Of a DNA stretch of 64,000 nt, positions 847 through 63,366 are shown one piece after another. The stretch covers positions 136,132-200,131 of the forward strand of contig JAXGMP010000005.1 of the NCBI GenBank assembly GCA_040768605.1, written 5' to 3'. Under the pieces are notes generated by a model. It saw only the letters and a list, made by a program, of their open reading frames with translations, searched no databases and was not told the DNA's origin. This DNA is from Anaerolineae bacterium (GTDB lineage: Bacteria; Chloroflexota; Anaerolineae; UBA1429). The stretch's first letter is position 1. Each line of letters begins with the position of its first letter. The translations under genes were made by a program, and so were the position numbers.

Positions 847-867
847 GCGCGCCGCGCTGCGGCGTTC

Positions 868-898
868 GGAACCCAGCGCGCCGCCTGCGCGTAGTCTA
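868..898 (+). promoter_or_regulatory. Possible ECF-sigma promoter for the radical SAM gene
   Basis: GGAACC (868-873), 16 nt spacer, CGTAGTCTA; resembles ECF -35/-10 consensus. Confidence 0.35.
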
Positions 899-1111
899 GT
901 TGGGCAGCATTCCTGGGCCGTACGGTCGATCCTGAATATTACATCTGCGGTGTCGGTGCTCCGCAGCCAGCGTGAGGCGCCTCCCGTCTGGCTGTGAAAG
1001 ACCCCAGAGTCTCAGGCCATCTTCCCAACAGCCTCCATCCACGCCCTGGCCTCACCGCTCACCGGCGACGCGGCGTCTCGCCTCATCAGGTGACTGAAGG
1101 AGGTTACGGCG

Positions 1112-2353
1112 GTGTTGGACAAAAGGGATCTCTACAGGCTCCCCTGGTCGCTGAACGACAACCCGATCGCCTGGCTGGAAGTGACCGACATCTGCAACCT
1201 ACGTTGCGAGGGCTGCTATCGCCAGCGCCTGACGGGGCACAAGCCACTCGAAGACGTCCAGGAGGAGATCCTCTTCCTCAAGCGCTGGCGCAACCCCGAC
1301 AACGTCTCGATCGCCGGCGGCGAACCACTCCTCCACCCCGACATCGTCGCCATTGTGCGGTTCATCGCGGAGCAGGGCATCAAGCCGGTCCTGCTGTCCA
1401 ACGGGCTCGGCCTTGACCCGCAGTTGCTGCGGGAACTCAAGCGCGCCGGACTTTCGGGGTTTACGCTGCACGTGGACAGCCACCAGGGCCGCCCCGAGTG
1501 GCGAGGCAAGTCGGAGGCGGAACACAACGCCCTGCGGCAACACTATGCCGAGATGATCGCCGACGTCGGCGGGCTGATCACCATTTTCAACGCGACCGTG
1601 TATCCCTCAACCTTCCCGGAGATCCCGGCGGTAGTGCGTTGGGCCAAGGACAACATCCGGTCGGTCCAAGGGGTGGTCTTTATCACCTACCGCATTGCCG
1701 CCACCGACAGCCAGATGGCGCTCGACGCCAGCGCCCAGCAGGTGGACCTGAGCAGACTGAGCTACTCGGTCGAGCGGTTTGACGAGGAGTTCGTCACCGG
1801 GCCAGAGGTATGCCAGGCGATCCACGAGTGTCTGCCGGAATACGAGCCCTCTGGCTACCTCGGCGGAACGCTGCGGCACGACTCTTTCAAGTGGATCATC
1901 GGTGCCGTGGTCGGCTCTCAGGGCGGGGTGTATGGCTCGGTGGGCAAGCGCACCATGGAGGTCGCCCAGGCCGGGCATCACCTGTGGCGAGGCACCTACC
2001 TGGCCTACCTGAACCAGCCCAGGATCGGCGCCAAGGTCTTCCTGATGAGCCCCTGGGACAGGAGCGTACGGCGGGCGGCCCGGAACTGGCTGGCGGCGGT
2101 GGTCAGGGATCCGGGGCGCCTCTTTGACTCACCTCGTCTGCAGAGCTACGCCATCATTCAGGCGCCCGACATCCAGCCGGACGGACGCGCCGACATGTGC
2201 GACTCCTGCCCAGACATGACCTTCTACAACGGCACGCTGATCAACTCCTGCCGCATGGATGAGTACCGCCTCTTCGGCGGGCCCCTCTCGTTGGTGGACC
2301 GTGCCAGGGTCGCCGCCACTCCCGAGAGTCACAGCCACCCGGCTGACGTCTGA
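1112..2353 (+). CDS. Radical SAM protein with extra C-terminal cysteines
   Basis: CNLRCEGC (CxxxCxxC), GGEPLLHP, SNG; C-terminal CDSC...SC; GGAGG RBS upstream of GTG. Confidence 0.9.
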   Translation: MLDKRDLYRLPWSLNDNPIAWLEVTDICNLRCEGCYRQRLTGHKPLEDVQEEILFLKRWRNPDNVSIAGGEPLLHPDIVAIVRFIAEQGIKPVLLSNGLGLDPQLLRELKRAGLSGFTLHVDSHQGRPEWRGKSEAEHNALRQHYAEMIADVGGLITIFNATVYPSTFPEIPAVVRWAKDNIRSVQGVVFITYRIAATDSQMALDASAQQVDLSRLSYSVERFDEEFVTGPEVCQAIHECLPEYEPSGYLGGTLRHDSFKWIIGAVVGSQGGVYGSVGKRTMEVAQAGHHLWRGTYLAYLNQPRIGAKVFLMSPWDRSVRRAARNWLAAVVRDPGRLFDSPRLQSYAIIQAPDIQPDGRADMCDSCPDMTFYNGTLINSCRMDEYRLFGGPLSLVDRARVAATPESHSHPADV

Positions 2354-2371
2354 GCGCGCGGCGCATCGTAC

Positions 2372-2403
2372 GGGGGCCCTGTGGAGCGCTCCACAGGGCC
2401 CCC
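2372..2403. terminator. Perfect inverted repeat between convergent genes
   Basis: gggggccctgtggagc/gctccacagggccccc. Confidence 0.6.
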
Positions 2404-2410
2404 TGCTGTG

Positions 2411-3424
2411 CTAAAAGTCGGCGCGCGCCGGCACGACGGCCCTGCCAGTGAGGGCCGACTCGTCGGCCGCGATGGCGGCCGCCAGAGACTCGTAGGCGTC
2501 CCGGCCTGTGATGGTCATGGGCTTGTCGTATACGAGCGAGTCCACGAAGGCGTCCAAGCAGCCCAATACCCCCGTGACTAAGGGTTGTTCCGCCTCGGGG
2601 ATCTCCTGCCAGCCATCCTGGCCGTCGATAGCGGCGCGATCGCCCATGATCACGCCCTTGGTGCCGATCAGACGGAAGGCATGTCCGTCAACGCCCTGCT
2701 TGGGCGGCCAGTGCGCCTCGTAGGAAACGGTGACCTGCCCGATAGCGCCGCTGGCAAAGTGGAAGAGCGCCGCCGTGGTCTTGTCCCTGGGGAATTCCAG
2801 GGTGCCCAGGCGGTTCGCGTAGGCCATCACCGCTTCCACCGGCTGCCCCACCAGGTAGCGCACCAGGTCGACCTGATGGATCCCCGACCCGACGATGGCC
2901 GAACGGCCCGCCTCGGGCGCCGCGTACCAGGGAGCGCGGAGGAACTGCTGGCGCTTGTCTTGGATCGAGTCGATGGTCAGGTGGATCACGTCGCCAAAGG
3001 CGCCGGCGTTCAGCAGCCTCTTGATGGCCACGGTCGAGACGCGGTAACGCCGCTCGTGGGCGAGCATCAGCCGCGCCGCGCCGGCCTCCTCGGTCTCGAT
3101 GATGGCGCGGGCGTCCTCGAGGGTCGTGGCGATCGGCTTGGCCAGCAGGACGTGGCAGCCGGCCTGCAGGCAGGCCACCGCATGAGGGCGGTGGAGGTGA
3201 TCGGGCGTGGTCACGGAGATCGCGTCGAGCCGTTCGGCGGCGAGCATCTCATCCAGGCTGGCGTAGGCCGCCACCACGCGCGGGTAGGCCTCGCGGACGG
3301 CCCGGACGCGTTCCTCGTCAGGATCGCAGACCACCAAACGGCCGACGTGTTCGCAGTCGGCATACCAGCCGACGTGGTAGCGCCCCAGGCCCAGGCCCAG
3401 CACTCCAACAGACAGCTTGGTCAT
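2411..3424 (-). CDS. Gfo/Idh/MocA family oxidoreductase
   Basis: VGVLGLGLG Rossmann start, TTPDHLH, AKP (EKP variant), GIHQVD; AAGGA RBS before ATG 3424. Confidence 0.9.
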   Translation of the reverse strand: MTKLSVGVLGLGLGRYHVGWYADCEHVGRLVVCDPDEERVRAVREAYPRVVAAYASLDEMLAAERLDAISVTTPDHLHRPHAVACLQAGCHVLLAKPIATTLEDARAIIETEEAGAARLMLAHERRYRVSTVAIKRLLNAGAFGDVIHLTIDSIQDKRQQFLRAPWYAAPEAGRSAIVGSGIHQVDLVRYLVGQPVEAVMAYANRLGTLEFPRDKTTAALFHFASGAIGQVTVSYEAHWPPKQGVDGHAFRLIGTKGVIMGDRAAIDGQDGWQEIPEAEQPLVTGVLGCLDAFVDSLVYDKPMTITGRDAYESLAAAIAADESALTGRAVVPARADF

Positions 3425-3488
3425 CGTACCGTCCTTTCGCTGCGGGCCCTCCCGGGGCCTTACGGCGGATTCCGGGAGGGCCCAGGCC

Positions 3489-3517
3489 TTGACAACGTTT
3501 TCCACGGGCCCTATACT
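3489..3517 (+). promoter_or_regulatory. Sigma70-type promoter of the catabolic operon
   Basis: TTGACA (3489-3494), 17 nt, TATACT (3512-3517). Confidence 0.8.
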
Positions 3518-3535
3518 GCGAGTGACCGTAGATAG

Positions 3536-3557
3536 TCGATAGAGTATACGATATCGA
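3536..3557. promoter_or_regulatory. Palindromic operator, probably for the GntR at 10725
   Basis: TCGATA-GA-GTATAC-GA-TATCGA, an AT-rich imperfect palindrome just downstream of the -10. Confidence 0.6.
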
Positions 3558-3775
3558 TTTCTGGTGCCAGCGCGCCCGCCAGGTTCTGAGCTGTGTTCGG
3601 ATCGACCGACGGCGAGACCAGGCGGCTCGCGCCCTTTGTTTGAGTCCCGTGCCGTCCGGGGGCAGAGTAGCGCGGCAACTCACTCCCCCCTGTGCATGGG
3701 ATAGATGCGTGACCCGCGCCCTTGACGCGTTCGGTTCGGTAGGCCCGATTCCGCATCCAGCCACAGAGGAGCACT

Positions 3776-4873
3776 ATGGCACTCAGTCTCTACGATCGTA
3801 TCTACGCCGTCAACGCCGCAGTGACCATCTCGAACTCCATCGGCGACGTCACCGAGGGCAAGAGCTACCAACAGATCGAGGAGCAGTTCGGCTTTGTGGA
3901 TCGCCTGCTGGCCCAGGACAAGGCGCGCAGCGAACAGCGCCGCGACTGGGGGCCCGATCAGGTGCGCCAGGCCCATCACCGTCCCGCCGGCATGACCGAG
4001 GACGGCATCGAACGGCACCGGCTGATGTGCACCGCGATCATTGAGAAGGGCGGCCGCGTCGACGTCTGGGACCTCGCCCGGATCTGGGTGCGTGACATCA
4101 ACCGCGACCACTTTGGCATCCTCCTCGGCAACCAGGACCGCATCTTTTATGACCTGCTGAAGGCCGGCATGCCCCCCACAGAAACGGGACGCTACGCCGA
4201 CTGGCCCGGCTTTATCGGCACCTGCAAGATGATGCTCCCCGTCGGGATCGTGAACGCCTGCGACCCTCGCCAGGCAGCCCTCGATGCGCTGGACACCGGC
4301 CGTCTCAAGGATAGCCCCCATCGTGCCTTCAACTACGCCCTGGAAGTCTGCGCGGCGGTCGCCGCCGCCTGTGCCGAGGCGCTGCGGCCCGGGGCCACGG
4401 TGGAAGCGATCATCTCGGAGGCCCTCCGCCACCTCTCCTCGGTGCCACGGGCTGAGGTCGAGGCCGCGCTGGCCTGGACCGGGGAGGTCGAGGACGTGTG
4501 GGCCTTGCGGCCACGCTTCGCGGCCAAGTACCAGGGGCGCCCCATCTCGAACGCGGTGGAGGTACTCAGCGCGGGGCTGGCCATCTTCCGCATGGTCCAG
4601 GGGGATACGCACCAGGCCATTCTCACCTCGGTAAACTTTGGGCGCGACTGCGACTGCATCTCGTACGTAGCCGTGGGCCTGTCTGCCGCCCTGAACGGCC
4701 TGGGAGACGTGCCCCGGGGTTGGCTCGCCATCGTGGAGGAGGAGCTGAAAACCGATCCCTATACTGTTTCGCGGCGATCTCTGGAAGATACCGCCAAGGG
4801 CCTTTACCAGGCCGTTCTGAACGAGCTGGACGGAGCAAGGCGGCGGATCTCCGAACTGGAGACCGCGCTGTAA
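3776..4873 (+). CDS. ADP-ribosylglycohydrolase (DraG/ARH-like) family protein
   Basis: IGD, MTEDG and GRDCDCI metal-binding motifs; GAGGAG RBS. Confidence 0.8.
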   Translation: MALSLYDRIYAVNAAVTISNSIGDVTEGKSYQQIEEQFGFVDRLLAQDKARSEQRRDWGPDQVRQAHHRPAGMTEDGIERHRLMCTAIIEKGGRVDVWDLARIWVRDINRDHFGILLGNQDRIFYDLLKAGMPPTETGRYADWPGFIGTCKMMLPVGIVNACDPRQAALDALDTGRLKDSPHRAFNYALEVCAAVAAACAEALRPGATVEAIISEALRHLSSVPRAEVEAALAWTGEVEDVWALRPRFAAKYQGRPISNAVEVLSAGLAIFRMVQGDTHQAILTSVNFGRDCDCISYVAVGLSAALNGLGDVPRGWLAIVEEELKTDPYTVSRRSLEDTAKGLYQAVLNELDGARRRISELETAL

Positions 4874-4931
4874 CCTGTGCCCGAACGACGCGACGCCTGT
4901 TCGGCCGCATTCCATCGTGAGAAGGAGACAG

Positions 4932-5966
4932 ATGAGCCCGAAAAGCCCTTCCAAGGACCTCACCCAGGCAATCAAAGAGTTGGCGCTCCAGAGCGGTGCC
5001 GCGCTGGTGGGCATCGCCTCGATCGACCGCTTTGACCCGCAGCCCCCTTACTACGACAAGGCGCCTCGCGGCCACGACCCGCGCGACTATGTGCCCAACG
5101 CCAAGTCGGTGATCTCGTTCGCGCAGCCGGTCCTCAATGCGGTGATGGACGCCCCCGCCGCGCTGGCCGACGTCGACATGGAGATGATCCCGCCCGACAT
5201 CAAGCACCCCTACCTGGAGATGCTCTACCAGCTCGTAGGGCACCGCGTGCAGGACTATATGCTCGAGCAGATCGGCCAGGTCGTCGGGCAGATGATCCAG
5301 CTCGAGGGGTTCGAGACGATGATCTTCCCCACCACGGGGTTGCATCCCAACATGCCGCCGACCGGCATCGGGGTGAGCGAGACGCGCCTGACCGACCAGC
5401 AGATCTGGCAGGGCCCCTCCAAAAAGTGGGCCGACAAGTACTCGCCTTTCCGCTACACCTTTGGCCCCGTCTCGCACCGCCACGCAGCCACCCGCGCGGG
5501 CCTGGGCGAGTTCGGCTACAACAACATCGTCCTGACCCGGGAGTTCGGGCCGCGCCAGCGCTTCAACACGATCATCACCGAGGCGGAGCTGGTGCCCGAC
5601 CCGCTGATCAGCGAGCCGATCTGCCTGCGTGACAACTGCCGCCTGTGCCTGAAGGCCTGCATCATGGAGGCCATCACCCTGCGCGATGACCCGTCCTTCT
5701 CCGACTATCGCCTGGTAGACAAGGTGAACAAGGACGTCATCTTTGTCGACACGCCGGCCAAGACCGACCCGGTGACGTGCAACTCCCGGCGGACGCGCAT
5801 TCCTGACTCGCCGATCCGCGGCGATTGCGCCAGGGTCTGCCCGCTGCCGGTGACGCGCACGCATCTGCCGGTGCGGCTGAAGGCTATGGTGGAGGAGTGG
5901 GTGGCCGAGCGGGGCGTGAGCCTCGGCGCTGCGGGGGGCGTGGCCGAGGGGACGTTCAAGGGATAA
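4932..5966 (+). CDS. Epoxyqueuosine reductase (QueG)/reductive dehalogenase-like 4Fe-4S protein
   Basis: GAALVGIA, SHRHAATRAGLGEFGYNN...FGPRQRF; Cys clusters C-x4-CxxCxxxC and C...CARVCP; AAGGAG RBS. Confidence 0.75.
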   Translation: MSPKSPSKDLTQAIKELALQSGAALVGIASIDRFDPQPPYYDKAPRGHDPRDYVPNAKSVISFAQPVLNAVMDAPAALADVDMEMIPPDIKHPYLEMLYQLVGHRVQDYMLEQIGQVVGQMIQLEGFETMIFPTTGLHPNMPPTGIGVSETRLTDQQIWQGPSKKWADKYSPFRYTFGPVSHRHAATRAGLGEFGYNNIVLTREFGPRQRFNTIITEAELVPDPLISEPICLRDNCRLCLKACIMEAITLRDDPSFSDYRLVDKVNKDVIFVDTPAKTDPVTCNSRRTRIPDSPIRGDCARVCPLPVTRTHLPVRLKAMVEEWVAERGVSLGAAGGVAEGTFKG

Positions 5967-6128
5967 GCAAAGCACGAAGTGGTCTGGCGGCTTGGTGATA
6001 GTGCCGCGCGGGGCCCCGAGAGCAGGCTGCCTCTCCCCCGCGCGGCGGGGCGACGTCTGATTGGATATGTACCGCGGGTTACGTTCTTGAGCACGCCGTG
6101 TCCCGTAGCCATCAGAAGGAGCATCAGC

Positions 6129-8183
6129 ATGTCCACGAGAACTGTCAGCCGTCGAGACTTCTTGCGTGTGTCGGCGATCGTGGCGGCCGGCAGCGTGGCG
6201 GCAGCTTGCGGAGCTCCGCAGCCTGCCGCCCCGGAACCTGCCGCCCCGGCCGGCGCCGCCACTCCAGCACCTGCAGCACAGCCAACCAGCGCCCAGACCC
6301 AGCCCACGGCTGCCCCGGTGGCGGCCGTGACGCGTTTCCAGGAAGCCCCGATGCTGGCGGAACTGGTCAAGGACGGCAAGCTGCCCCCCGTGGAGGAGCG
6401 CCTCCCGGAGAGCCCCCTGATCATCGAGCCGACCAAGGAGATAGGCACCTACGGCGGCACCCTGTACGGTTCGTCGTCGGCACCCGAAGCCACCGATGAC
6501 CTACAGGCCACTATGGTCACCGGCCCGTTCTCCTTCAACAATGACCTGTCGGTCATGACCCCCAACGCGTGCGAGTCTTTCGAGTTCAACGAGGACGCCA
6601 CGCGCTGCGTGCTCCATCTGCGCAAGGGGGTCAAGTGGTCGGACGGAGCGCCCTTCTCTGCCGACGACATGATCTTTTACTACGAGGACTGGCAGTTCAA
6701 CACCGACCTGGCCCCCAACCTTTCCCGCAACTGGAGGCCGGGGGGCAAGCCGATGACCTTCACCAAGGTGGATGACTACACGGTCCAGTTCGACTTTGCC
6801 GTGCCCAACTGGGCCTTCTATGCGATCATGCGTTCCTCTCCTCCCCAGACGCCCTGGCGCCCCAAGCACTATGCCCAGCAGTTTCACCCCAAGTACAACG
6901 CCAAGGCGGAGGAGCAGGCCAAGGCGGCCGGCTTTGACAACTGGCAGGCCTGGTTCGGCAAGATGGTCAGCGTGGAGGACATCAACTACGGGGCACAGAA
7001 CCCGGACCTGCCCGTCCTGGAGCCCTGGCGCCCGGTCAAGTCCGACAGCGAAGGCCAGTACTATGAGCGCAACCCCTTCTACTTCAAGGTGGATCCGGAG
7101 GGCAACCAGCTGCCGTACATCGACAGCGTCGACGTGCGCTACGCCTCCAGCATGGAAGTCATCAACATGCGCGCCATCTCCGGTGAGCTGAGCGCGGCAA
7201 CCCGCGACCTCCTCCTCGTCAACTATCCTGTGCTGCGGGACAACCGGGAGAAGGGGGAGTACCAGCTGCTGATCGGGGCGAGCGAGCGCGGTGCGGACCT
7301 GGCGCTGGCCTTCAACCAAAACCATCCCGACCCGGTGCTGAAGGAGATCTTCTGCGACCTGCGCTTCCGCCAGGCCATGTCAGTTGCCATTGACCGGAAT
7401 GAGATCAACGAGCTCCTCTATCTGGGGCAGGGTACTCCGCGTCAGGCCACTATCCCTGACAGCGCCAGCTTCTTCAAGCAGGAATGGGCTGACGCGTATG
7501 CGCAGTATGATCCTGACCTGGCCAACAGCCTGCTGGACGAGATGGGCCTGGACAAGCGGGGGGCCGATGGCACCCGCCTCCGGCCGGACGGTGAACCGCT
7601 GGCGTTCCTGCTAGAGTTCACCGGCACGCAGGGGCCGTTCAACGAGACCTGCCAACTGGTGGTCAAGACCTGGGCCAAGGTAGGCATCAAGTGTGAGGTG
7701 AAAGAGGGTCAGAAGGCCTATGTCTCCCAGCGCCTGTCCGCTGGTGAGCACGATGCCACCATGTGGGTGGTGGACCGCACCCTCGAGCGCGCGGCCTGGT
7801 CGATGGGCTGGAACGGTGCCAAGCTGGCCCCCGGCGGCGGCTCGATCATCAACTACTGCAAGGCCTGGCAGGATTGGAAGAACTCCGGCGGCCAGAAGGG
7901 CGTCGAGCCTCCCCAGGAGGCGAACGACCTGTGGGATGCCTTCGATGCCTGGATGGGCTCGGAATACGGCAGCCCCGCCTACATGGAGGCTGCGACCCGC
8001 GTCCATGACCTCATCGCCCAGGTTCTGTGGGTGATCGGCATCATTGGGCAGGCGCCCGTGCCGATCCTGGTAAAGAACGACCTGCAGAACGTCTTCGGGG
8101 GCGACGAGGAAAAGATCTGGATCGGCGCCGCCAACTGGTACCTGCTTCCGCAGCATTCTGAGCAGTGGTTCTGGAAGTCCTAG
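6129..8183 (+). CDS. Family 5 ABC substrate-binding protein, Tat-signal lipoprotein
   Basis: SRRDFLR Tat motif, AAC lipobox, Pro/Ala linker, [24 protein letters not shown]. Confidence 0.9.
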
Positions 8184-8472
8184 CGTCCTGTGTGATATGG
8201 CCGCGAGACGGCTAGACAAGCCGTCTCGCGGCACCTGGACTCGGCGATCGGGACACTGCGTGAGCCGGGAGCGGCCCAGAGCGGCGTACCCTGGCCCACA
8301 CGTCTCACTGCGCTGACCCTCAGTGGCGACGTCCCCTCTGCCCATGTGAAGGCCTGGCCCAGGCCTCTGGACGCACTGCACGGAGCAGGCATCTGGGGCA
8401 GGTGGCCACGTAACGGCATGGGCTGCAACAGGCCTCAGGCCAACTGTATAGTCTGCATGAGGAAAGCCTGGC

Positions 8473-9456
8473 ATGCTTCACTTTGTGCTCCGCAGACTGC
8501 TGCTGCTAGTACCGACGGTCATCGTCATCTCGATGATCTCGTTCCTCGTGATCCAGCTGCCGCCCGGTGACTACCTGACCTCGTATGTCATCAGCCTGGA
8601 AGCCCAGGGGCAGTTCGTGGACCAGGAGCTCATCGACGCTCTCAGGGTTCAGTATGGTCTGGGGCAGCCCCTCTATGTCCAGTATGGTAAATGGGTATGG
8701 GGGATGCTGCATGGCCACTTTGGCCAGTCGCTGCAGTGGAAGGCCCCGGTCGCCGACCTTATCTGGGAGCGCCTCGGCCTCACCGTGGTGCTATCTCTGG
8801 GATCGCTTCTCTTTGTATGGCTGGTGGCTTTTCCAGTCGGGATCTATTCCGCGGTTCGCCAGTATTCCGTGGTAGATTATGTATTCACCGCCCTGTCTTT
8901 CTTCGGATTAGGAATACCGGACTTTTTATTGGCTCTTATCGTCATGTGGCTGGCTTTCTCGCAGTTGGGCATCTCTGTAGGAGGGCTGTTCTCCAACGAG
9001 TTCGTGCGCGCCCCTTGGTCATGGGCCAAGGTGGTTGATATGCTGAAACACGCCTGGATGCCCATGGTGGTGTTGGGCATTGGCGGCACGGCCGGGCTGA
9101 TCCGCATCATGCGCGCCAACCTCCTCGACGAGCTAAACAAGCCCTATGTGGAGACGGCACGCGCCAAGGGGCTACGGGAACGGCGGCTGATCCTCAAGTA
9201 CCCCGTGCGCGTAGCCCTCAACCCGTTCGTCAGCACCTTGGGGTGGACGCTGCCGAGCCTGGTATCTGGCTCTGTGATCGTATCGGTGGTGCTGAGCCTC
9301 CCGACGACCGGCCCTCTGCTCCTCACCGCGCTTCAGGCACAGGATATGTACCTAGCCGGTACCTTCTTGTTGATGCTGAGCATTCTGACGGTGCTCGGGA
9401 CTCTAGTATCCGATGTGCTGCTGGCCTTGCTCGACCCGCGCATCCGCGTGGAGTAG
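8473..9456 (+). CDS. ABC permease, DppB/OppB type
   Basis: IQLPPGD, YVETARAKGL (EAA loop), LDPRIR. Confidence 0.9.
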   Translation: MLHFVLRRLLLLVPTVIVISMISFLVIQLPPGDYLTSYVISLEAQGQFVDQELIDALRVQYGLGQPLYVQYGKWVWGMLHGHFGQSLQWKAPVADLIWERLGLTVVLSLGSLLFVWLVAFPVGIYSAVRQYSVVDYVFTALSFFGLGIPDFLLALIVMWLAFSQLGISVGGLFSNEFVRAPWSWAKVVDMLKHAWMPMVVLGIGGTAGLIRIMRANLLDELNKPYVETARAKGLRERRLILKYPVRVALNPFVSTLGWTLPSLVSGSVIVSVVLSLPTTGPLLLTALQAQDMYLAGTFLLMLSILTVLGTLVSDVLLALLDPRIRVE

Positions 9457-9487
9457 GAGCCGCATGGCATGTTGATGATCTGGAAGG

Positions 9488-10654
9488 ATGACCATGAGCC
9501 TGGCCGATGACGTAAGCCAACACGCGGCGCACGACGCACCCATCGAGCCGGAACAGGTACGAGATGAGCACATCCTGGTCGCATCCCAGTGGCAGCTCAT
9601 GTGGTGGAAGTTCCGCAAACACAAGCTGGCTCTGGTGGCCACCGTGGTGATTGTCCTCCTGTACCTGGTGGCGACGTTCGTCGAGTTCGTAGCACCCTAT
9701 GATCCGGAGGAGCAAGAGGCCCGCATGGCCTACAGGCCCCCTACCAGGATCCACTTTGTGGATGGGCGGGGAGAATCTCATCTGCGCCCCTTCGTTTACG
9801 GCACGCAGTCCACGCGAGACCTCGAGTCGTTTAGCCTTGTCTTCTCCGAAGACCGCACGCGGGTCTATCCGGTATACTTTTTCACCCCTGGCACCCCATA
9901 CCGTCTGTGGGGGCGCTTTGATGCCGACATGCACCTGTTTGGCCTCGCTAGCAGTGAGGACAGATTCTTCCTGATCGGGGCAGACAAACAGGGCCGCGAT
10001 CTCTTTTCGCGTATCGTCTATGGCTCCCGACTCTCCCTATCGATCGGTCTCGTCGGTGTTGCGATCAGCTTCATACTGGGTGTTCTGATTGGTGGCATCT
10101 CCGGGTTCTACGGCGGCGTGGTCGACACGATCCTGCAACGCGTGATCGAGTTCATCCGCTCCATCCCGACGATCCCGCTGTGGATGGCGCTCTCAGCGGC
10201 ACTACCGCCCAACTGGCCGCCGGTTCGCGTGTACTTGGGCATCACGGTGATCCTCTCGCTGATCGGATGGACCGGCCTGGCCCGCGTGGTCCGCGGCCGT
10301 TTCCTGGCGCTACGCGAGGAGGACTTTGTGATGGCCGCCAAGCTCTGCGGCTCCAGTGAACTGCGCGTCATTCTGCGCCACATGGTGCCGGCTTTTGCCA
10401 GCCACATCATCGCGTCCTTGACCCTGGCAATACCGCGGATGATCCTCAGTGAGACGTCCCTCTCGTTCCTGGGGCTGGGGCTCCGCTTCCCGGCCATCTC
10501 GTGGGGGGTGCTCCTGCAGGAGGCGCAAAACGTTCGCTCGGTGGCCCAGGCCCCCTGGCTGCTGACGCCGGGCCTGGCCGTGGTCCTCTCGGTGCTGTCG
10601 CTGAACTTCCTGGGGGACGGGCTGCGCGATGCGGCCGATCCCTATGCCCGATGA
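9488..10654 (+). CDS. ABC permease, DppC/OppC type
   Basis: KFRKHKLA, GADKQGRDLFSR, FVMAAKLCG, GDGLRDAADP. Confidence 0.9.
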   Translation: MTMSLADDVSQHAAHDAPIEPEQVRDEHILVASQWQLMWWKFRKHKLALVATVVIVLLYLVATFVEFVAPYDPEEQEARMAYRPPTRIHFVDGRGESHLRPFVYGTQSTRDLESFSLVFSEDRTRVYPVYFFTPGTPYRLWGRFDADMHLFGLASSEDRFFLIGADKQGRDLFSRIVYGSRLSLSIGLVGVAISFILGVLIGGISGFYGGVVDTILQRVIEFIRSIPTIPLWMALSAALPPNWPPVRVYLGITVILSLIGWTGLARVVRGRFLALREEDFVMAAKLCGSSELRVILRHMVPAFASHIIASLTLAIPRMILSETSLSFLGLGLRFPAISWGVLLQEAQNVRSVAQAPWLLTPGLAVVLSVLSLNFLGDGLRDAADPYAR

Positions 10655-10724
10655 GTATGCCCGCCGAAAGCCGCAGGGCGGCCTGGGCCGACCCGGGCCA
10701 CGGCGGAGGGGAGACGGAGAACGC

Positions 10725-11429
10725 ATGACCGCCAGACGGGCTGGCGCAAGGCTGGCCAAGGTCACCGCCCGCTCGATCACTGACCGCGCCTATGAGGCCA
10801 TCCGCGATGCCATCGTCGAGGGCCAGTTCCGCCCTGGGGAACGCCTCTCTGAGGAAACCCTCGCCGAGCAGCTGGGCGTCAGCAAGACCCCCGTGCACGA
10901 CGCCCTCGGGCGCCTGGTGGCCGAGGGTCTGGTTCAAATGACGCCTTATGTGGGCGCATCGGTGATCCGTCTGTCTCCCGAGGATGTCGACGAGATCTAT
11001 GACCTCCGTGAGACCCTCGAACGGCTGGCCATTCGGCAGGCCATTGGGCACGTCGACGATGCACTCCTGCTGGAGCTGGACCACGAGCTGGCCTCGTTCG
11101 CCCGCCCCCTTCCCCAGAAGGAGTTCCAGCACTACTTTGACGTCGACAACCGCCTGCACGACGCCGTGGCGCAGATGAGCGGCAACGGGCGCCTGGTGCG
11201 CATCCTCGACATGCTGCGCAACCAGTCGCACGCCGCCCGCTTCCTCTCCTCGCGGCTGCCGGGCCGCACCGACCTCTCCATCGAGGAGCACCGGGCCATC
11301 ATCGCCGCGCTGCTGGCCCGCGACGCGCCGCTGGCCCAGGAAACCATGCAAAAGCACCTCAGCGGATCGCGCCGGGCGGCTGCACACATCGTAGAAGAGT
11401 TGACCACCGATAGGCTTGAGGAGGACTGA
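10725..11429 (+). CDS. GntR family regulator with FCD domain
   Basis: AYEAIRDAI..G.FRPGERL.E..LA..LGVSKTPV HTH; FCD-type C-terminus with EEH; GGAGA RBS. Confidence 0.9.
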   Translation: MTARRAGARLAKVTARSITDRAYEAIRDAIVEGQFRPGERLSEETLAEQLGVSKTPVHDALGRLVAEGLVQMTPYVGASVIRLSPEDVDEIYDLRETLERLAIRQAIGHVDDALLLELDHELASFARPLPQKEFQHYFDVDNRLHDAVAQMSGNGRLVRILDMLRNQSHAARFLSSRLPGRTDLSIEEHRAIIAALLARDAPLAQETMQKHLSGSRRAAAHIVEELTTDRLEED

Positions 11430-11435
11430 GAGCGC

Positions 11436-12200
11436 ATGCGCACGAATCGCGTAAAGGCCATGCTGGCCAATGGAGAGAACGTCCTGGGCACCTTTGTGCG
11501 CACCACGCACCCCGCCGTCGTCGAGGTCCTGGGCCTGGTCGGCTTTGACTTTGTGATCATCGACAACGAGCACAGCCCCGTGGGGATCGAGTCCACCGCG
11601 AACCTCATCCGTGCGGCTGACGGCGTCGGCATCACGCCCTTTGTGCGGGTGATGACCAACGATGCCGTGGCCATCATGCAGGCGCTGGACGCGGGCGCCC
11701 TGGGCGTGCAGGTCCCGCAGATCTCGGCCCGGCAGGACGCCGAGTACGCCGCGCGCGCCCTCAAGTACCCGCCTATCGGCACCCGCGGCCTGGCCACCAG
11801 CCACCGTGCCGCGAACCATGGCCTGATGGACCCGCTGGAATACGTCCGTATGGCCGACCAGGAGACGATGTTCCTCGCCTACGTGGAGAACCGCGAGGCG
11901 GTGGCCAACATCGAAGAGATCGTGACGGTGCCGAACATCGACCTCCTGTTCCTCGGTCCCGCCGATCTCTCGGCCTCCTACGGCTATCCCGCGCAGACGG
12001 CCCACCCCGAGGTGCAGCAGGCCATCGCACGGGTGTTGGAGGTAGCCGCCGCGGCTGGGATCCCCGTGGGTACCGTCGCCGCGGATGCTGCCTCGGCCCG
12101 TGCGCTCCTCGATCGCGGCGTGCGGTTCCTGGCCATCAGCTCGGACCTGCAGATGATCGGCCGCTGGGGCAGCGAGACGCTCAGGGCGTTGCGCGCCTAG
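11436..12200 (+). CDS. HpcH/HpaI (2-keto-3-deoxy sugar acid) aldolase family protein
   Basis: GFDFVIIDNEH, LDAGALG, YPPIGTRG, FLGPADLS. Confidence 0.9.
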   Translation: MRTNRVKAMLANGENVLGTFVRTTHPAVVEVLGLVGFDFVIIDNEHSPVGIESTANLIRAADGVGITPFVRVMTNDAVAIMQALDAGALGVQVPQISARQDAEYAARALKYPPIGTRGLATSHRAANHGLMDPLEYVRMADQETMFLAYVENREAVANIEEIVTVPNIDLLFLGPADLSASYGYPAQTAHPEVQQAIARVLEVAAAAGIPVGTVAADAASARALLDRGVRFLAISSDLQMIGRWGSETLRALRA

Positions 12201-12213
12201 CACTGTTGGGGGA

Positions 12214-13287
12214 ATGTGGATGAACTCGTATGAGCGCGTGATGTGTTGCCTCAACCATGAGCCCGCCGACCGCCTGCCGGTGGACGGCAGCTTCCACCCG
12301 GAAGTCTGGCGCATGCTCGAGGAGCACCTGGGCACTGCGGATCACAACGCGATCCAGGAGGCGCTGGGGATCGACTTTCGCCAGGCGGGCATGGGCGTTG
12401 CCGACGCCTTCAAGGCCCGGGCCACCCGGACGCGCCACGGCTGGCGCATCGCACACCCCGACGGCACCGTCGAGGACGAGTGGGGCGTGCGCGTGCGGTT
12501 CGACCGGCAGGAGCGCTACTACCGTTTTGTCTACCAGCCGCTGGCCGTGGTCCCGCTCGAGGAGTATGCATTCCCTGACCTGGACGCGCCCGGGCGCTTC
12601 GTGCCGCCCGCCGCGGGACAGCGCAGCCCCTACGCGCGCATCTGCGGCATCAGCAACCTGTTCAAGGGCTGCTGGCACCTCCGCGGGCTGGACCAGTGGA
12701 TGATGGACCTGCTGGCCGACGTCGACTATGCCGAAGCCCTCCTGGACCGCATGCTGGCCTGGAACCTGGTGCTGGTCCGCCGTCTGGCGGCCCAGGGGCT
12801 GGACATCCTGGGCCTGGTGGGCGATATCTCCATGCAAGAGGGCATGATGATCTCCCCGGCCACCTGGCGCCGCCTCTTCAAGCCGCGAGAGGCCCTGGTC
12901 GTGGCCGAGGCCCAGCGGCTGGGGATTCGCCACGTCTACTTTCACTCCGACGGCAACCCGTCCGCCATCCTCGACGACCTCGTCGAGATCGGGATCACCA
13001 TGCTGGACCCCGTCCAACCCGAGTCGGTCGATCCGGCGGAGCTACGGCGCCGCTACGGGCGCCGCCTGACCCTGCACGGCACCATCTCGGCGCAGCACAC
13101 CCTCCCCTTCGGCACGCCCGAGGAGGTCCGCGCCGAGGTATTGGAGCGGATCCGCACCTGCGGGTATGATGGCGGCCTGGTCATCGCGCCGAACAACGTT
13201 GTCCAGCCGGACGTCCCGCTGGAGAACCTCCTGACCATGTATGCCACCGTGCGCGAGGTCGGCGCACGGGCCTATGCACGCGCCTGA
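12214..13287 (+). CDS. Uroporphyrinogen decarboxylase-like (URO-D/MtaA-CmuA superfamily) protein
   Basis: ERV...HEPADRLP, DEWG, FHSDG, PVQPE, GTPEEV. Confidence 0.8.
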   Translation: MWMNSYERVMCCLNHEPADRLPVDGSFHPEVWRMLEEHLGTADHNAIQEALGIDFRQAGMGVADAFKARATRTRHGWRIAHPDGTVEDEWGVRVRFDRQERYYRFVYQPLAVVPLEEYAFPDLDAPGRFVPPAAGQRSPYARICGISNLFKGCWHLRGLDQWMMDLLADVDYAEALLDRMLAWNLVLVRRLAAQGLDILGLVGDISMQEGMMISPATWRRLFKPREALVVAEAQRLGIRHVYFHSDGNPSAILDDLVEIGITMLDPVQPESVDPAELRRRYGRRLTLHGTISAQHTLPFGTPEEVRAEVLERIRTCGYDGGLVIAPNNVVQPDVPLENLLTMYATVREVGARAYARA

Positions 13288-13313
13288 ACACGCTATCGAA
13301 AGGAATCTCTCGC

Positions 13314-14408
13314 ATGACCCCGACATCATCCGCAACCCCCACCACCTACCGCGTCAGCGCCGCGGAACTCGCGCGCGTGACGGCCGCCTGCCTGGCGGGC
13401 GCTGGGCTCTCCGCCCAGCACGCCGCCCTGGTGACCGAGGGCCTGGTGGAGGCCGAACTCCGCGGCCAGGGCAGCCACGGCGTCTCGCGGCTCCTGGATA
13501 TCTACATCCAGCGCCTCAGCGCCCGCGCCACCAACCCCCAGCCCGATATCCGGATCGTCGCGCGCCGCGCCGGCACCGCCGTGGTCGACGGTGACAACGG
13601 CCCCGGCCAGGTGGTGGGGCGCTTCGCCATGGACCTGGCCATTGATCTCGCTCGCGAGCACGGCCTCGGCGCCGTGGCCGCGCGGCACTCCAATCACTAC
13701 GGGGCGGCGGCCTACTACCTGAACGCCGCGGTGGAAAAGGGCCTCATCGGCATCAGCACCACCAACGCGCCGCCCAACATGCCCCCCTGGGGCGGGCGGA
13801 AGCCCTACCTGGGCACCAACCCCCTGGCCATCGCCGTGCCCGCCGGCAAGTACGGCGCCATCCTGCTCGACATGGCCACCAGCGTGGTGGCCAAAGGCAA
13901 GATTCAGCTGATGGCCAAGGAGGGGCAGACGACCATGCCCGCCGGCTGGGCGCTCGACGCCGAGGGGCGCGACACGCAGAGCATCGACGCGGCCCTCCAG
14001 GGCGGCATGATGCTGCCCGTGGGCGGGCCGAAGGGCTACGGCCTGGCCGTCATGGTCGAGATCCTGAGCGCCATGCTCTCGGGGGCGGACTTTGGCCCGC
14101 ACCTGGGCAACATGTACACCCAGTTTGACCGGCCACAGAACATAGGGCACTTTTTCGGCGCGATCGACGTCTCCGGCTTTCTGCCGATGGAGGCCTTTAC
14201 GGCGCGCATCGAGGGGTTCATCGAGGAGCTCCGCGCCGTCCCGCGGCGTGAGGGAGTGGCCGAGATTCTCATGCCCGGTGAGATCGAGGCGCGCTGTGCG
14301 GAGCGCTACCGCCGCGAGGGCATTCCCATCGAGGCGCCCGTCCTGGCTGAGATCTCTCGCCTCGCCGAGCGCTTTGGGGTGCATCCCCCGCAGCCGCTGG
14401 CAGAGTAG
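13314..14408 (+). CDS. Ldh_2 family (malate/L-sulfolactate/ureidoglycolate-type) dehydrogenase
   Basis: GSHG, DGDNGPG, SNHYG, GTNP, DMATS, GGPKGYGL. Confidence 0.9.
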   Translation: MTPTSSATPTTYRVSAAELARVTAACLAGAGLSAQHAALVTEGLVEAELRGQGSHGVSRLLDIYIQRLSARATNPQPDIRIVARRAGTAVVDGDNGPGQVVGRFAMDLAIDLAREHGLGAVAARHSNHYGAAAYYLNAAVEKGLIGISTTNAPPNMPPWGGRKPYLGTNPLAIAVPAGKYGAILLDMATSVVAKGKIQLMAKEGQTTMPAGWALDAEGRDTQSIDAALQGGMMLPVGGPKGYGLAVMVEILSAMLSGADFGPHLGNMYTQFDRPQNIGHFFGAIDVSGFLPMEAFTARIEGFIEELRAVPRREGVAEILMPGEIEARCAERYRREGIPIEAPVLAEISRLAERFGVHPPQPLAE

Positions 14409-14432
14409 CCTCCTGAACGTCTGCCCCTCACT

Positions 14433-14465
14433 CACGGAGGCCGCCCCCTTGGGGCGGCCTCCGTG
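14433..14465 (+). terminator. Stem-loop after the Ldh_2 gene
   Basis: cacggaggccgcccc-ctt-ggggcggcctccgtg, 15 bp stem with weak U tail. Confidence 0.5.
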
Positions 14466-14561
14466 GTTCACCGCCGCAGTGGCGGTTGGCGCGCCGCCAC
14501 CTCGGCGCTAGAATGCCCCCGCACGTTAGCGTCCGCCCCTACACTCGGGAGAGGAGCCCTC

Positions 14562-16010
14562 ATGACCCCCATCCGCGTCACGATCGGCCTGTTGCCATCC
14601 CGCAGGGCGGCCCACACCGCCTGGACGGAGCGCATGCGCGTCGACAGTCTCGCGCTGCTCGGGCGGCTGCCCAGCGTCACGGCCGTGGCGCCTGCCGTAT
14701 CGCCGAGCGGCGCCATAGACAGGCTCTCCGGCGCAACCCCCCACGGCACGGTGAACACCCTCGATGAGGCCGAGGCTGTGGCGGCCTACTTTCGCCAAGA
14801 AGGGGTCGATGCCCTGGTGATCTGCCCGCTCGACTTTGGCGATGAGCGCTCCGCCGTCAAGGTGGCCGAACTGCTTCGCGTGCCGGTGCTCCTGTTCGCC
14901 ACCAAGGAACCCCCCGCCCTCCAGGATGCCAGCATGGCCCGCGTCTCCGATTCCTATTGCGGAACGCTGTCCATCTCCGCCGGCCTGACGCGCCGCCGCC
15001 TGCCCTTCCGCTTCGCCGGCGTCTACCTCCCCAGCGACCCGGAGATGCTCGCCGAGGCGGAGACGTTTGTGCGCGCCGTCGGCGTGGTGCGCGCCCTGCG
15101 CGGCGCGCGCATCGGGCAGGTGGGCGTCCGCCCGGTAACGTTCGAGACGGTGGCCTACGACGAGGTCGCCATGGCCACAGCCTTTGGCATGAACGTGATC
15201 CCCTACAACCTGGCCGACGTCGTCGACGCCGCCGAGGCGATCGCCGACGACGATCCGGCCGTCCGCGACCTGGTGGCCGGCGTCCGCGCCTCAGTGGCCG
15301 AGGTGACCGTGCCGGGCTCGCACCTCGTGCGGGCCGCCAAGTTCGAGCTGGCCCTGGTCGCCTTCTGGGAACGCCATGGCCTCTCGGCCCTGGCCGCGCA
15401 GTGCTGGCCCTCCATCCAGCGGATGATGGGCATTTCCCTCTGCGCGGTCTATGGGCGCATGACGGCGCGCCACATGCTCACCGCCTGCGAGGTGGACGTG
15501 CTCGGCGCCGTGGCCATGTTGGCCAACTATGGCGCCGCCCTGGGCGAGGGGTTGCCCCATTTCGTCGACTGGACCATCCAGCACCGTGAGAACCCCAACT
15601 GGCTGCTGGCCTGGCACTGTGGCAACGCCCCCACCTGCCTGGCCGCCGACTCGGCGCGCACCGCGCTGCGCTCCCGGCGCGATATGGCCGGCGCCCTGCC
15701 TATCCCCGCGGAAGACACCATGGCCGGGCTGTACCAGTTCCAGCTCAAGCCCGGCACCGTGACCTTCTGCCGCCTGGCGGAGTACAACGGCGAGTGGAAG
15801 ATGCTCATCGCCCCGGGGCGCATCGTGCCCTCGGAAGAGACCCTGGCCGGCACCTGGGCCTGGGTCGAGGTCCGCGACCATGCCCGCCTCTACCGTACCC
15901 TCGTCGAGGAGGGCTTTATCCATCACGCCAGCATGATCCACGGGGACCAGACGCGTGCCCTTGAGGAGGCCTGCCGCTTCCTCGGCATCCGTGCCGTGGT
16001 CGTGGAGTAG
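14562..16010 (+). CDS. L-fucose/L-arabinose isomerase-like protein
   Basis: DFGDE, DSYCG, AQCWP, CEVD, WHCG, FIHH; GAGGAG RBS. Confidence 0.8.
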   Translation: MTPIRVTIGLLPSRRAAHTAWTERMRVDSLALLGRLPSVTAVAPAVSPSGAIDRLSGATPHGTVNTLDEAEAVAAYFRQEGVDALVICPLDFGDERSAVKVAELLRVPVLLFATKEPPALQDASMARVSDSYCGTLSISAGLTRRRLPFRFAGVYLPSDPEMLAEAETFVRAVGVVRALRGARIGQVGVRPVTFETVAYDEVAMATAFGMNVIPYNLADVVDAAEAIADDDPAVRDLVAGVRASVAEVTVPGSHLVRAAKFELALVAFWERHGLSALAAQCWPSIQRMMGISLCAVYGRMTARHMLTACEVDVLGAVAMLANYGAALGEGLPHFVDWTIQHRENPNWLLAWHCGNAPTCLAADSARTALRSRRDMAGALPIPAEDTMAGLYQFQLKPGTVTFCRLAEYNGEWKMLIAPGRIVPSEETLAGTWAWVEVRDHARLYRTLVEEGFIHHASMIHGDQTRALEEACRFLGIRAVVVE

Positions 16011-16015
16011 CGATC

Positions 16016-16963: not shown

Positions 16964-16978
16964 TCGGAGGGCACTCCC

Positions 16979-19104: not shown

Positions 19105-19132
19105 GCCGGCGGCGCCGGCCGGCCCGCAGCGC

Positions 19133-27129: not shown

Positions 27130-27298
27130 CCACTGGGCCATTATGGTCCATCGCCTCTCCACGCTCAAGGCCGCCGCGGCCCCGGCCGGCAGCGTGCGAG
27201 TGCGGCCGCGCCGTCGTTCTGGTAGAATAGAACTCAGGTGTACTGCCCCCTGGGCGCCTTGGCGCCCCGCCGGTGGGCTATCGGGCAAGGAGCAACAC

Positions 27299-53005: not shown

Positions 53006-53020
53006 CGAGAGAGGTGGCGT

Positions 53021-54652: not shown

Positions 54653-54656
54653 TCCG

Positions 54657-59636: not shown

Positions 59637-59651
59637 CGACGGGCCCCGCCG

Positions 59652-60833: not shown

Positions 60834-60855
60834 CCGCCCCGACCAAGGAGAGCCC

Positions 60856-61554: not shown

Positions 61555-61632
61555 CCAGGGGAATAGAGCAAACGCCGCGACGCGCGCCTACAAGGCGTAC
61601 GTCGCGGCGTCTTTGTCGATCCGGAGATCGGC

Positions 61633-63333: not shown

Positions 63334-63366
63334 ACAAGTTCCAGCCTTGGTCTGGTAGGGCGGGGC

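Follow-up and report, generated by a model that had tools for sequence, protein, structure and literature searches.

Layout of the locus

The window considered here, the whole stretch of 64,000 nucleotides (nt) that was analysed, comes from an Anaerolineae bacterium (contig JAXGMP010000005.1). It carries a run of co-directional genes that begins with a gene for an ADP-ribosylglycohydrolase-fold metal hydrolase (ARH) followed by a gene for a protein of the QueG/RdhA superfamily, here called QGL. Genes were assigned from an open reading frame (ORF) listing together with Pfam and NCBIfam scans, and all coordinates are positions in the window; G000 denotes the window's own genome, and G, L, C and X numbers label genomes, loci, contigs and RNA runs. 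Our preferred reading, to which we give a probability of about one half, is that the operon imports and fully degrades one carbohydrate-type compound by way of two branches. A preliminary description of the same DNA had proposed the anaerobic import and breakdown of a modified glycoside or nucleoside by an island spanning 2411–14408, an interpretation that is partly supported by the present analysis.

ARH is encoded at 3776–4873 (+) and matches PF03747 with 101.9 bits (cut-off 26.2). After a gap of 43 nt, QGL is encoded in an ORF of 349 amino acids at 4917–5966 (+) that contains Fe-S motifs, and its probable start is the ATG at 4932, because homologues begin at residue 6 of the ORF. Further downstream are genes for a substrate-binding protein (SBP), two permeases, a GntR regulator, an HpcH-type aldolase, a URO-D-like protein and an Ldh_2 dehydrogenase, and a Gfo/Idh/MocA gene diverges from ARH. 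Every gene named in the preliminary description is recovered by the ORF listing and the Pfam/NCBIfam scans at the same place and on the same strand. The end of the cluster, on the other hand, has to be moved, as the tight co-directional run does not stop at 14408 but reaches 17857 through a Fucose_iso_C-like gene, a PfkB kinase gene and a class II aldolase gene, preceded by gaps of 54, 5 and 15 nt, respectively. These three added genes are the ones most syntenic with ARH–QGL in the nearest relatives.

Intergenic gaps in the run range from −26 to 54 nt, except for 162 nt between QGL and the probable start of the SBP and 289 nt before the permeases. A promoter-like site, TTGACA-17 nt-TATACT, which agrees with the consensus at 11 of 12 positions, is located at 3489–3517 (+), and it is followed at 3536–3557 (+) by a 22-bp palindrome with the inverted repeat TCGATAGAGTA/TACGATATCGA, a candidate operator. 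A perfect 13-bp stem-loop at 8200–8232 (+), composed of GCCGCGAGACGGC, the loop TAGACAA and GCCGTCTCGCGGC, starts 17 nt past the SBP stop codon and has no T-run. The terminator scan did not call this hairpin, nor did it find anything terminator-like in any gap between the operon genes. The hairpin may stabilize the upstream RNA or attenuate transcription, either of which would raise expression of the SBP over that of the permeases. No Rfam family matched positions 1–20000 at E ≤ 1, upstream of the genes or elsewhere, and therefore no cobalamin riboswitch is present there. As one part of the preferred reading, and with the same even confidence, the region from 3776 to 17857 may be taken as a single GntR-controlled operon of 13 genes, plus the divergent Gfo/Idh/MocA gene.

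Short contigs from RNA libraries of two studies fall on most of the genes (28 of 30 bins in X17, 26 in X18, 12 in X15 and 9 in X16), which is a weak sign of expression, as DNA can be present in such libraries. A single "joint" (4388>15647, with a 20-letter side, in X17 and X18) and the uncovered bins are given no weight.

The rest of the window is occupied by housekeeping genes, such as recA, rny (RNase Y), thrS, infC and rplT. The label of an island is thus not retained, since housekeeping flanks indicate a chromosomal operon rather than a mobile-element island. Just upstream of the Gfo gene, a radical SAM protein of 413 amino acids is encoded at 1112–2353 (+), the best NCBIfam match of which is the N-terminal part of the tetraether lipid synthase Tes (59 bits, compared with 450). 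Two very long ORFs, 19133–22120 (−) of 995 amino acids and 52109–55198 (−) of 1029 amino acids, have no Pfam match at E ≤ 1e-6. A small sugar-type cluster lies at 58152–63969: the (+) strand encodes an FGGY kinase, an amidohydrolase and a cupin, the (−) strand a PRK-family kinase and a FucA-type class II aldolase.

QGL and ARH within their superfamilies

QGL has no Pfam match. It reaches 35.1 bits against the NCBIfam RDH model TIGR02486 (cut-off 160.35), and 28.8 bits in the protein scan or 26.3 bits in the genome scan against the QueG model TIGR00276 (cut-off 200). In the PDB, the single sequence aligns over residues 183–260 with PceA (E = 3e-9) and with QueG (E = 6e-5). With a profile, the match to PceA improves to E = 3.6e-11, and the N-terminal LT..VK..GA.LVG.A motif is included in the matches to PceA and QueG. 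When a profile of 18 QGL family members is aligned by hhalign with a profile of six canonical QueG sequences from genomes of the same phylum, residues 14–260 of QGL pair with 4–210 of QueG at a probability of 98.7% (E = 1.7e-16, 187 columns), and therefore the homology extends over the entire N-terminal catalytic core as well as the first Fe-S motif. On the strength of these alignments, QGL is a real but distant relative of the QueG/RdhA core.

The QueG/RdhA superfamily has two well-understood jobs, reduction of epoxyqueuosine in tRNA and reduction of organohalides. Seven cysteines are invariant in QGL (C236, C241, C244, C248, C288, C304 and C308), arranged as C-x4-C-x2-C-x3-C and C-x15-C-x3-CP (motif SHRHAATRAGLGEFGYNN). 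Like QueG (TIGR00276; PDB 5D08, 5D6S), QGL has an AxRAGLGxxGxN motif and two ferredoxin-type cysteine motifs. However, canonical QueG proteins, found above the cut-off in 31 of the 61 genomes of the phylum, score 230–363 bits, whereas QGL scores 26–29 bits. The C-terminal domain of QueG is HEAT-like and binds tRNA. QGL has no counterpart of the last ~130 residues of QueG, none of its sequence being aligned past column 210 of 380, and it is shorter (344–349 amino acids, compared with 368–415 for the six QueG sequences used); it also carries an insertion of ~45 residues at 140–183. QueG has eight cysteines in two CxxCxxCxxxCP-type motifs (C179, C182, C185, C189, C205, C232, C235 and C239), one more than QGL, and its GxDYH and DTG motifs are replaced in QGL. 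The gene context of QGL is also one of carbohydrate genes rather than tRNA modification genes.

The RdhA proteins (TIGR02486; PceA 4UQU/8Q4H, NpRdhA 4RAS) provide the best PDB sequence matches of QGL and share with it the N-terminal LT..VK..GA.LVG.A motif and the AGLGE core motif. In contrast to RdhA, QGL has no twin-arginine (Tat) leader at its N-terminus, as read from the sequence, and no RdhB-type anchor gene beside it, its neighbours being ARH and the SBP; its score is 35 bits, compared with 160, and it is ~120–160 residues shorter than the PceA chains. QGL is probably an Fe-S reductase of the QueG/RdhA type that uses cobalamin. B12-binding proteins are encoded in the genome, in line with the preliminary description.

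Identification of QGL as QueG itself is rejected by its score, its lack of the C-terminal domain, its seven cysteines and the use of QueH by the genome. In the 4.03-Mb genome (98% complete), the suggested search for a canonical queG elsewhere with the QueG model finds only the QGL locus, at 26.3 bits. The genes for QueH (189 bits) and QueA (370 bits) are neighbours on contig C2, the former 108 bp upstream of the latter, and that for Tgt is on contig C3. QueH is cobalamin-independent. Since the genome has QueH beside QueA as well as Tgt, queuosine synthesis does not depend on QGL, and the preliminary description, which would have fallen had QGL been the epoxyqueuosine reductase of the organism, is not refuted on this point. 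About 1.4 kb upstream of QueH (G000:C2:515417-518817) there is an ORF of 236 amino acids with a B12-binding domain (109 bits).

The same evidence bears on a salvage route for queuosine or epoxyqueuosine nucleosides, in which ARH would cut the N-ribosyl bond and QGL would reduce the free epoxy-base. QueG is among the nearest characterized relatives of QGL, and in L047, one of the 50 QGL loci compared, a nucleoside:H+ symporter of the major facilitator superfamily type and an IU-nucleoside hydrolase are encoded two genes upstream. The other 49 loci show no nucleoside genes, however, the motifs of the catalytic region of QueG are not kept in QGL, the genome makes queuosine via QueA, QueH and Tgt, and an operon of 14 kb with its two aldolase branches is oversized for a trace nucleoside. 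Such salvage is therefore considered very improbable, and the nucleoside that the preliminary description had allowed as a substrate is less likely than a sugar, a sugar acid or a glycoside.

QGL belongs to a large clade. At least 900 homologues are detected at E ≤ 0.001, the best 120 listed being 61–98% identical, and many are labelled "epoxyqueuosine reductase QueG" in databases; the ESM Atlas gave only unnamed or "QueG"-labelled clusters. In contigs sampled at one genome per species, QGL occurs in 61 loci, with 52–88% identity in the main group, among Chloroflexota, Planctomycetota, Armatimonadota, Bacillota, Spirochaetota, Kiritimatiellae, Latescibacterota, Verrucomicrobiota and others. 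Within the family of the host, it is present in 3 of 24 other genomes, which marks it as an accessory gene. Forty-seven longer relatives (735–813 amino acids; P0245–P0291) consist of two or three tandem QGL-like domains ~30% identical to QGL, and none has an informative fused domain. Three consecutive QGL-like genes are found in a Victivallaceae locus (L060 10001–13042). The nitroreductase/TM1586 fold is related to the RdhA/QueG core, and genes of this type recur near ARH or sugar loci (window 27143–27811; L138 1022–1855; L156 46–903).

ARH also has its own clade. It has 581 homologues at E ≤ 1e-10, of which the best 120 listed are 54–100% identical, and it scores 17.7 bits against the DraG equivalog (cut-off 337), and it likewise stays below the Tri1 equivalog. 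N20, S21, G23, D24, E27, T74-E75-D76, R290, D293 and C294 are invariant in 18 sequences, and 90% or more of them keep D291. In alignments with MJ1187 and DraG, the motif Glu (E27), the T-E-D motif (74–76) and the D-x-D motif (291–293) are kept; the conserved Glu and Asp motifs of this family bind the metals. Thus, ARH resembles DraG, ARH3 and MJ1187 in its clear membership of PF03747 and in these motifs, but the Asp of the canonical GDALG motif is the invariant Asn N20 in the ARH clade, D-T-D-T reads D-C-D-C, and the gene sits in transporter/aldolase operons. Several members from Planctomycetota have N-terminal hydrophobic extensions resembling export signals, as read from the alignment rather than by a predictor, which point to a role of this fold other than on ADP-ribose. 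The catabolic setting first ascribed to ARH is borne out by this family, which occupies transporter and catabolic loci.

Importer, regulator and catabolic enzymes

The SBP is a family-5, cluster C lipoprotein with a large cleft, encoded in the ORF 5979–8183 (+) and matching PF00496 with 193.6 bits. Its start is probably near 6129, because a Tat/lipoprotein-type leader, read from the sequence, begins at residue 51 of the ORF; the NCBIfam Tat-signal model gives 16.3 bits (cut-off 16.7). Its closest PDB entries are 5IPW from T. maritima (358 bits) and the pectin-binding SPH1118 (283 bits), cluster C proteins of the same large-cleft class to which it is similar over its full length. The ligand reported for SPH1118 is unsaturated trigalacturonate, whereas peptide mixtures (yeast extract, tryptone) are hardly bound (PMC9314435).

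Two Opp/Dpp-type permeases are encoded at 8473–9456 and 9488–10654 (+) (PF00528, PF19300, PF12911), with 250.7 bits for Opp4B and 279.9 bits for Opp4C, both below the NCBIfam cut-offs. The genome contains 29 oligo_HPY ATPase hits, none on the contig of the window, for 22 permease pairs and 47 SBP5 paralogues, numbers that make shared ATPases plausible. The GntR/FCD regulator is encoded at 10629–11429 (+) (PF00392, PF07729), and its true start may lie downstream of 10629, because the helix-turn-helix begins at residue 51. The preliminary description is thus right in seeing a catabolic cluster that brings an importer and a regulator of its own, as far as the SBP, the two permeases and GntR are concerned, though not the ATPase genes. 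Very large paralogue families are a general feature of this 4-Mb genome, which has at least 37 URO-D and 36 Gfo/Idh/MocA members besides the 47 SBP5, 22 permease pairs and 29 oligo_HPY hits.

The divergent Gfo/Idh/MocA NAD(P) oxidoreductase (2411–3505, −; PF01408 84.9 bits, PF22725, PF02894) has as its best NCBIfam matches UDP-GlcNAc 3-dehydrogenase (113.6 bits) and IolG (111 bits, compared with 355), both below the cut-off, and its closest PDB entry is 3q2k. The PfkB sugar kinase (16016–16963, +; PF00294 144 bits) likewise matches ribose-1-phosphate kinase (114.5 bits), IolC (105.5 bits, compared with 300) and ribokinase (104.7 bits) below their cut-offs. The natural substrate of QueG is a carbocyclic epoxy-diol. 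Together with the IolG and IolC scores, this raises the idea of an inositol-type cyclitol pathway, in which Gfo would act as IolG and the PfkB kinase as IolC, ARH, QGL and the URO-D-like protein would replace the ring-opening steps, the class II aldolase would correspond to IolJ, and HpcH and Ldh_2 would finish the acid products. IolO-like TIM barrels in related ARH/QGL loci (249 bits in L148 and 242 bits in L028, compared with 300) and an alcohol dehydrogenase in L152 that resembles IolM or L-idonate dehydrogenase (213–217 bits) point in the same direction. Nevertheless, every iol score is below its cut-off, the window has no match to IolD, IolE, IolB, IolM or IolO, and ARH paralogues match only DraG and Tri1 in NCBIfam. 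A large-cleft family-5 SBP would also suit an oligomer better than a monomeric cyclitol. A cyclitol pathway is accordingly regarded as rather improbable.

The Fucose_iso_C-like aldose-ketose isomerase (14463–16010, +; PF02952 50.3 bits) has no PDB sequence match, and its only NCBIfam match is sulfoquinovose isomerase SftI, at 129 bits compared with 700. Next to PfkB is the class II ketose-bisphosphate aldolase (16979–17857, +; PF01116 252 bits), with 228 bits, compared with 423, for class II fructose-bisphosphate aldolase. L-Fucose and D-arabinose are degraded by the FucI-FucK-FucA route. The window genes share with this route, and with sulfo-EMP-type logic, the succession of an aldose isomerase, a ketose kinase and a class II aldolase leading to dihydroxyacetone phosphate (DHAP), whereas the kinase is of the PfkB type, the aldolase of the FBA-II type, and the isomerase matches FucI only in its C-terminal domain.

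The SftI match also suggests that a C6 substituent might be lost by reduction, as in a desulfonation of sulfoquinovose to 6-deoxyglucose by QGL, after which the isomerase, kinase and aldolase would yield DHAP and lactaldehyde. The isomerase of L010 scores 165 bits for SftI, sulfolactate dehydrogenase is the best NCBIfam match of Ldh_2 (270 bits), and in the reactions of RdhA enzymes an anionic leaving group is expelled. Each of these scores, however, lies far below its cut-off. The window has no match to GH31 or a sulfoquinovosidase, no sulfite exporter or reductase or sulfoquinovosidase is seen in it or in the scanned neighbours, and the PDB matches of Gfo list no sulfoquinovosidase. We consider this reaction a distant prospect.

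HpcH (11436–12200, +; PF03328 138 bits) is a class II aldolase of the HpcH/HpaI family, GarL-like and probably acting on 4-hydroxy-2-oxo acids, with 184 bits for GarL (cut-off 393), 178 for HpaI (369) and 138 for RhmA (441). Its closest PDB entry is 1dxe, 2-dehydro-3-deoxy-galactarate aldolase. Ldh_2 (13314–14408, +; PF02615 407 bits) is a 2-hydroxyacid/2-oxoacid dehydrogenase with 270 bits for sulfolactate dehydrogenase (cut-off 500) and 242 for AllD, closest to PDB entries 1vbi, 1v9n and 2x06. The GarL-GarR end-pathway for glucarate and galactarate in E. coli is similar in that HpcH is nearest to GarL and that ARH loci often contain a GarR-type reductase. It differs in that no GarD/GudD-type dehydratase is seen in any module and that the window has Ldh_2 instead of GarR.

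The URO-D-superfamily protein (12214–13287, +) matches PF01208 with 57.3 bits in its C-terminal half only. Its best named matches are MtaA/CmuA in NCBIfam (56.6 bits, cut-off 235.4) and, as the sole PDB match, MtaA 4ay7 (34 bits). The preliminary description had assigned it a corrinoid-linked demethylation, and a version of the pathway can be drawn in which it is a corrinoid-dependent methyltransferase or demethylase with QGL as its corrinoid/Fe-S partner, acting on a modified glycoside or nucleoside. Distant URO-D-like genes, 25–27% identical, are indeed found near QGL in L011, L024, L027, L029 (two copies) and L053, and the genome encodes B12-binding proteins. The host, a member of the Chloroflexota, looks like an anaerobe, as had been supposed. 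No haem-copper oxidase subunit I (COX1) is found in its 98%-complete genome, and near-identical DNA is present in anaerobic-digester, sludge and wastewater runs of several studies besides the possible source. Oxygenase-type demethylases would be unusable in such a host, which is a further argument for a corrinoid enzyme.

On the other hand, MtaA (4AY7), a methylcobalamin:coenzyme M methyltransferase, is the only solved relative and resembles the C-terminal half of the protein, but its His-x-Cys...Cys zinc site is His-Ser-Asp...Asn (H244-S-D246, N328) in the window protein. The orthologue group has invariant H244-S-D246-G-N248, E270, N328, Q331 and D333 and no invariant Cys. Orthologues (36–43% identical) immediately precede ARH in L057, L133, L136, L148 and L152, and in L148 and L152 neither QGL nor a B12-binding (PF02310) protein is found in the annotated flanks of ARH, ~5 kb on either side. 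The operon itself has no corrinoid protein (PF02310) and no methyl-acceptor (tetrahydrofolate) methyltransferase. In the genome, 7 B12-binding-domain hits are detected, and none of 37 URO-D-family hits lies within 10 kb of one of them; 37 is a lower bound, because the URO-D-like gene of the window is not in that list. With the zinc ligands replaced and no QGL or corrinoid protein near the orthologues of L148 and L152, a corrinoid methyltransferase is not supported, and the pathway built on it seems quite improbable.

Recurring sub-modules and the proposed pathway

Gene neighbourhoods were compared in 50 QGL loci (identity at least 50%) and 80 ARH loci from metagenomes; ORFs of the fetched loci were called by a crude longest-ORF/GC3 heuristic, so that the neighbours without Pfam matches may include some false ORFs, and some genes probably escaped detection. 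Where ARH is at least 72% identical to that of the window, QGL lies directly downstream of it in all four informative loci (L076, L078, L079 and L080), while in a fifth locus the contig ends 57 nt past ARH. In Spirochaetota, too, three loci (L039, L041 and L057) have QGL next to an ARH orthologue, at 51–55% identity.

A DNA search of three related genomes carrying QGL extends this synteny. In the nearest genus (G017), Gfo, ARH and QGL are syntenic, Gfo–ARH being on contig C42, and QGL is followed directly by the isomerase on contig C859 (= L006), while the class II aldolase is matched at 79% DNA identity on contig C98. The order ARH–QGL–FucI is found in L080, with an isomerase 73% identical, and the order isomerase–PfkB–FBA2 is kept on contig C209 of G010. 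The core among close relatives is therefore a divergent Gfo and ARH–QGL–isomerase–kinase–aldolase.

Genes from the other half of the operon are associated with ARH in more distant lineages. The 80 ARH loci include HpcH in nine (directly after ARH in L132, L138, L146 and L148), GntR in six, Ldh_2 in four, the URO-D orthologue in four, and SBP5 in two, L149 and L155, with permeases. In L078, the order is permease, SBP, ARH, a broken ARH copy, QGL, HpcH and an RraA-like gene. The broken copy (L078 9224–10202), directly after the ARH orthologue and 52% identical, has three stop codons and is probably a decaying duplicate. Tartronate-semialdehyde-reductase-like genes are found in eight ARH loci, GarR being above its cut-off in L152 (510 bits), and the module of URO-D-like protein, ARH and HpcH occurs elsewhere with such a gene or with Ldh_2. 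Other ARH neighbours, by Pfam and NCBIfam, are Gfo, sugar ATP-binding cassette (ABC) and TTT transporters, GH28, apiosidase-like proteins, glucuronyl esterase and sulfatases. ARH is thus the hub gene of recurring aldolase/reductase/transporter modules.

The same genome has a second ARH paralogue, 30% identical, in L156 (G000:C1:764001-784000, genes at ~8444–16237), where a divergent LacI (−) is followed by ARH', Gfo, a xylose-isomerase-like TIM barrel, another Gfo, RpiB/LacAB and the N-terminal part of a transketolase. The first of these Gfo proteins is 54% identical to that of the window, so the ARH–Gfo pairing is repeated within the genome. Comparable Gfo/ARH/TIM-barrel runs are found in L148 and, more loosely, in L028.

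The neighbours of QGL in the 50 loci are mixed. Five have a YdjG-like aldo-keto reductase gene immediately upstream, and four have FucI_C-like genes, three of these together with DUF4432; further neighbours are Gfo, GH95, GH123, GH4, GH130, sulfatases and xylose-isomerase-like TIM barrels.

In the preferred reading, the large-cleft SBP and the two permeases would import an oligomer or conjugate with ATPases borrowed from elsewhere in the genome. Gfo, as an oxidoreductase, and ARH, as a metal hydrolase, would then open or split the imported compound, and QGL, as an Fe-S and probably cobalamin-dependent reductase, would remove or reduce a modification on the sugar-derived product. From here the two branches would diverge. 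An aldose product would pass through the isomerase, PfkB and the class II aldolase to DHAP and a small aldehyde. An acidic 4-hydroxy-2-oxo acid, prepared by the URO-D-like protein, would be cleaved by HpcH to pyruvate and an aldehyde or acid, Ldh_2 carrying out the final redox step. The order of the steps, the cobalamin of QGL, the action of ARH on a small molecule and the class of the substrate are presumed here, whereas the gene content, the homology of QGL with the QueG/RdhA core, the dispensability of QGL for queuosine and the recurrence of the sub-modules are observed.

Several observations weigh against this reading. The gene neighbourhood, the conservation of which had been proposed as a check, is conserved in sub-modules such as ARH–QGL but not as a whole, the full set being absent from the 50 QGL loci and the 80 ARH loci alike. 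About 20 of the 50 QGL loci have no sugar gene within two genes of QGL (a manual tally on crude ORFs), and most ARH loci at 51–60% identity have no other window genes nearby. As for the proteins, 5IPW, the best PDB match of the SBP, was deposited as a putative oligopeptide binder, an ABC ATPase gene is found neither in the cluster nor in the whole window, and no substrate-specific NCBIfam model reaches its cut-off for any operon enzyme. QGL itself is missing one of the eight cysteines of QueG and the GxDYH and DTG motifs. Finally, QGL and the isomerase of the nearest genus are not separated by the 8.3-kb block that spans SBP to Ldh_2; among close relatives this insertion is present only in the window, and thus the two branches may be independent modules that are joined only here.

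This last point leads to a serious, though unlikely, alternative, in which ARH–QGL–isomerase–kinase–aldolase is one pathway and the inserted transporter–GntR–HpcH–URO-D–Ldh_2 block serves another substrate, their adjacency being due to chance. The isomerase directly after QGL in G017 and L080, the failure to find the full set elsewhere among the loci compared, and the 289-nt gap with its hairpin after the SBP are all in line with a mosaic, and the 47 SBP5 paralogues and 22 permease pairs mean that such cassettes are plentiful and mobile within the genome. The recurrence of ARH with HpcH, the URO-D orthologue, Ldh_2, GntR and SBP5/permeases in unrelated lineages, and the ARH–QGL–HpcH order in L078, argue against it, since the partners of ARH in other genomes come from either half of the operon. 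Moreover, all the genes are co-directional behind one strong promoter-like site, and no terminator-like site was called in the gaps between them.

If one compound does feed both branches, as the preferred reading of a single operon holds, our best guess for it is an acidic plant or algal oligosaccharide, any single substrate being given much less than an even chance. Candidate reactions for QGL are the reductive removal of an epoxide, of an anhydro bridge, or of a methyl, sulfo or hydroxy substituent. Tentatively, and at odds well short of even, QGL may represent a third functional class of the cobalamin/[4Fe-4S] QueG–RdhA reductases, a cytoplasmic small-molecule reductase by which anaerobic glycan degraders act on a modified sugar or cyclitol together with an ARH-fold enzyme whose role has shifted from ADP-ribose hydrolysis to carbohydrate catabolism. 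If this is true, sugar breakdown would gain its first known B12-dependent reductive step, one that extends across at least eight phyla.

Literature searches found no report of ARH with URO-D in a gene cluster, of ARH with HpcH and aldolase, or, on topic, of ARH with MocA and sugar; a search on uncharacterized QueG/RdhA members gave nothing on topic, and another brought only general planctomycete papers. An operon for catabolism of a substrate as yet unassigned is ordinary in itself. What is unusual is that two large, tightly conserved and uncharacterized clades, one of QueG/RdhA and one of ARH, are paired in sugar catabolism. The QGL clade, with its at least 900 sequences, is routinely mislabelled QueG and often adjoins sugar-processing genes. 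Even if the substrate should prove ordinary, the operon brings its own binding protein and regulator and thus offers a clean, testable entry point by ligand screening. Solving either activity would fill a gap in the anaerobic degradation of modified glycans in digesters and sediments, correct a widespread annotation error, and provide a new reaction class for B12 enzymology.

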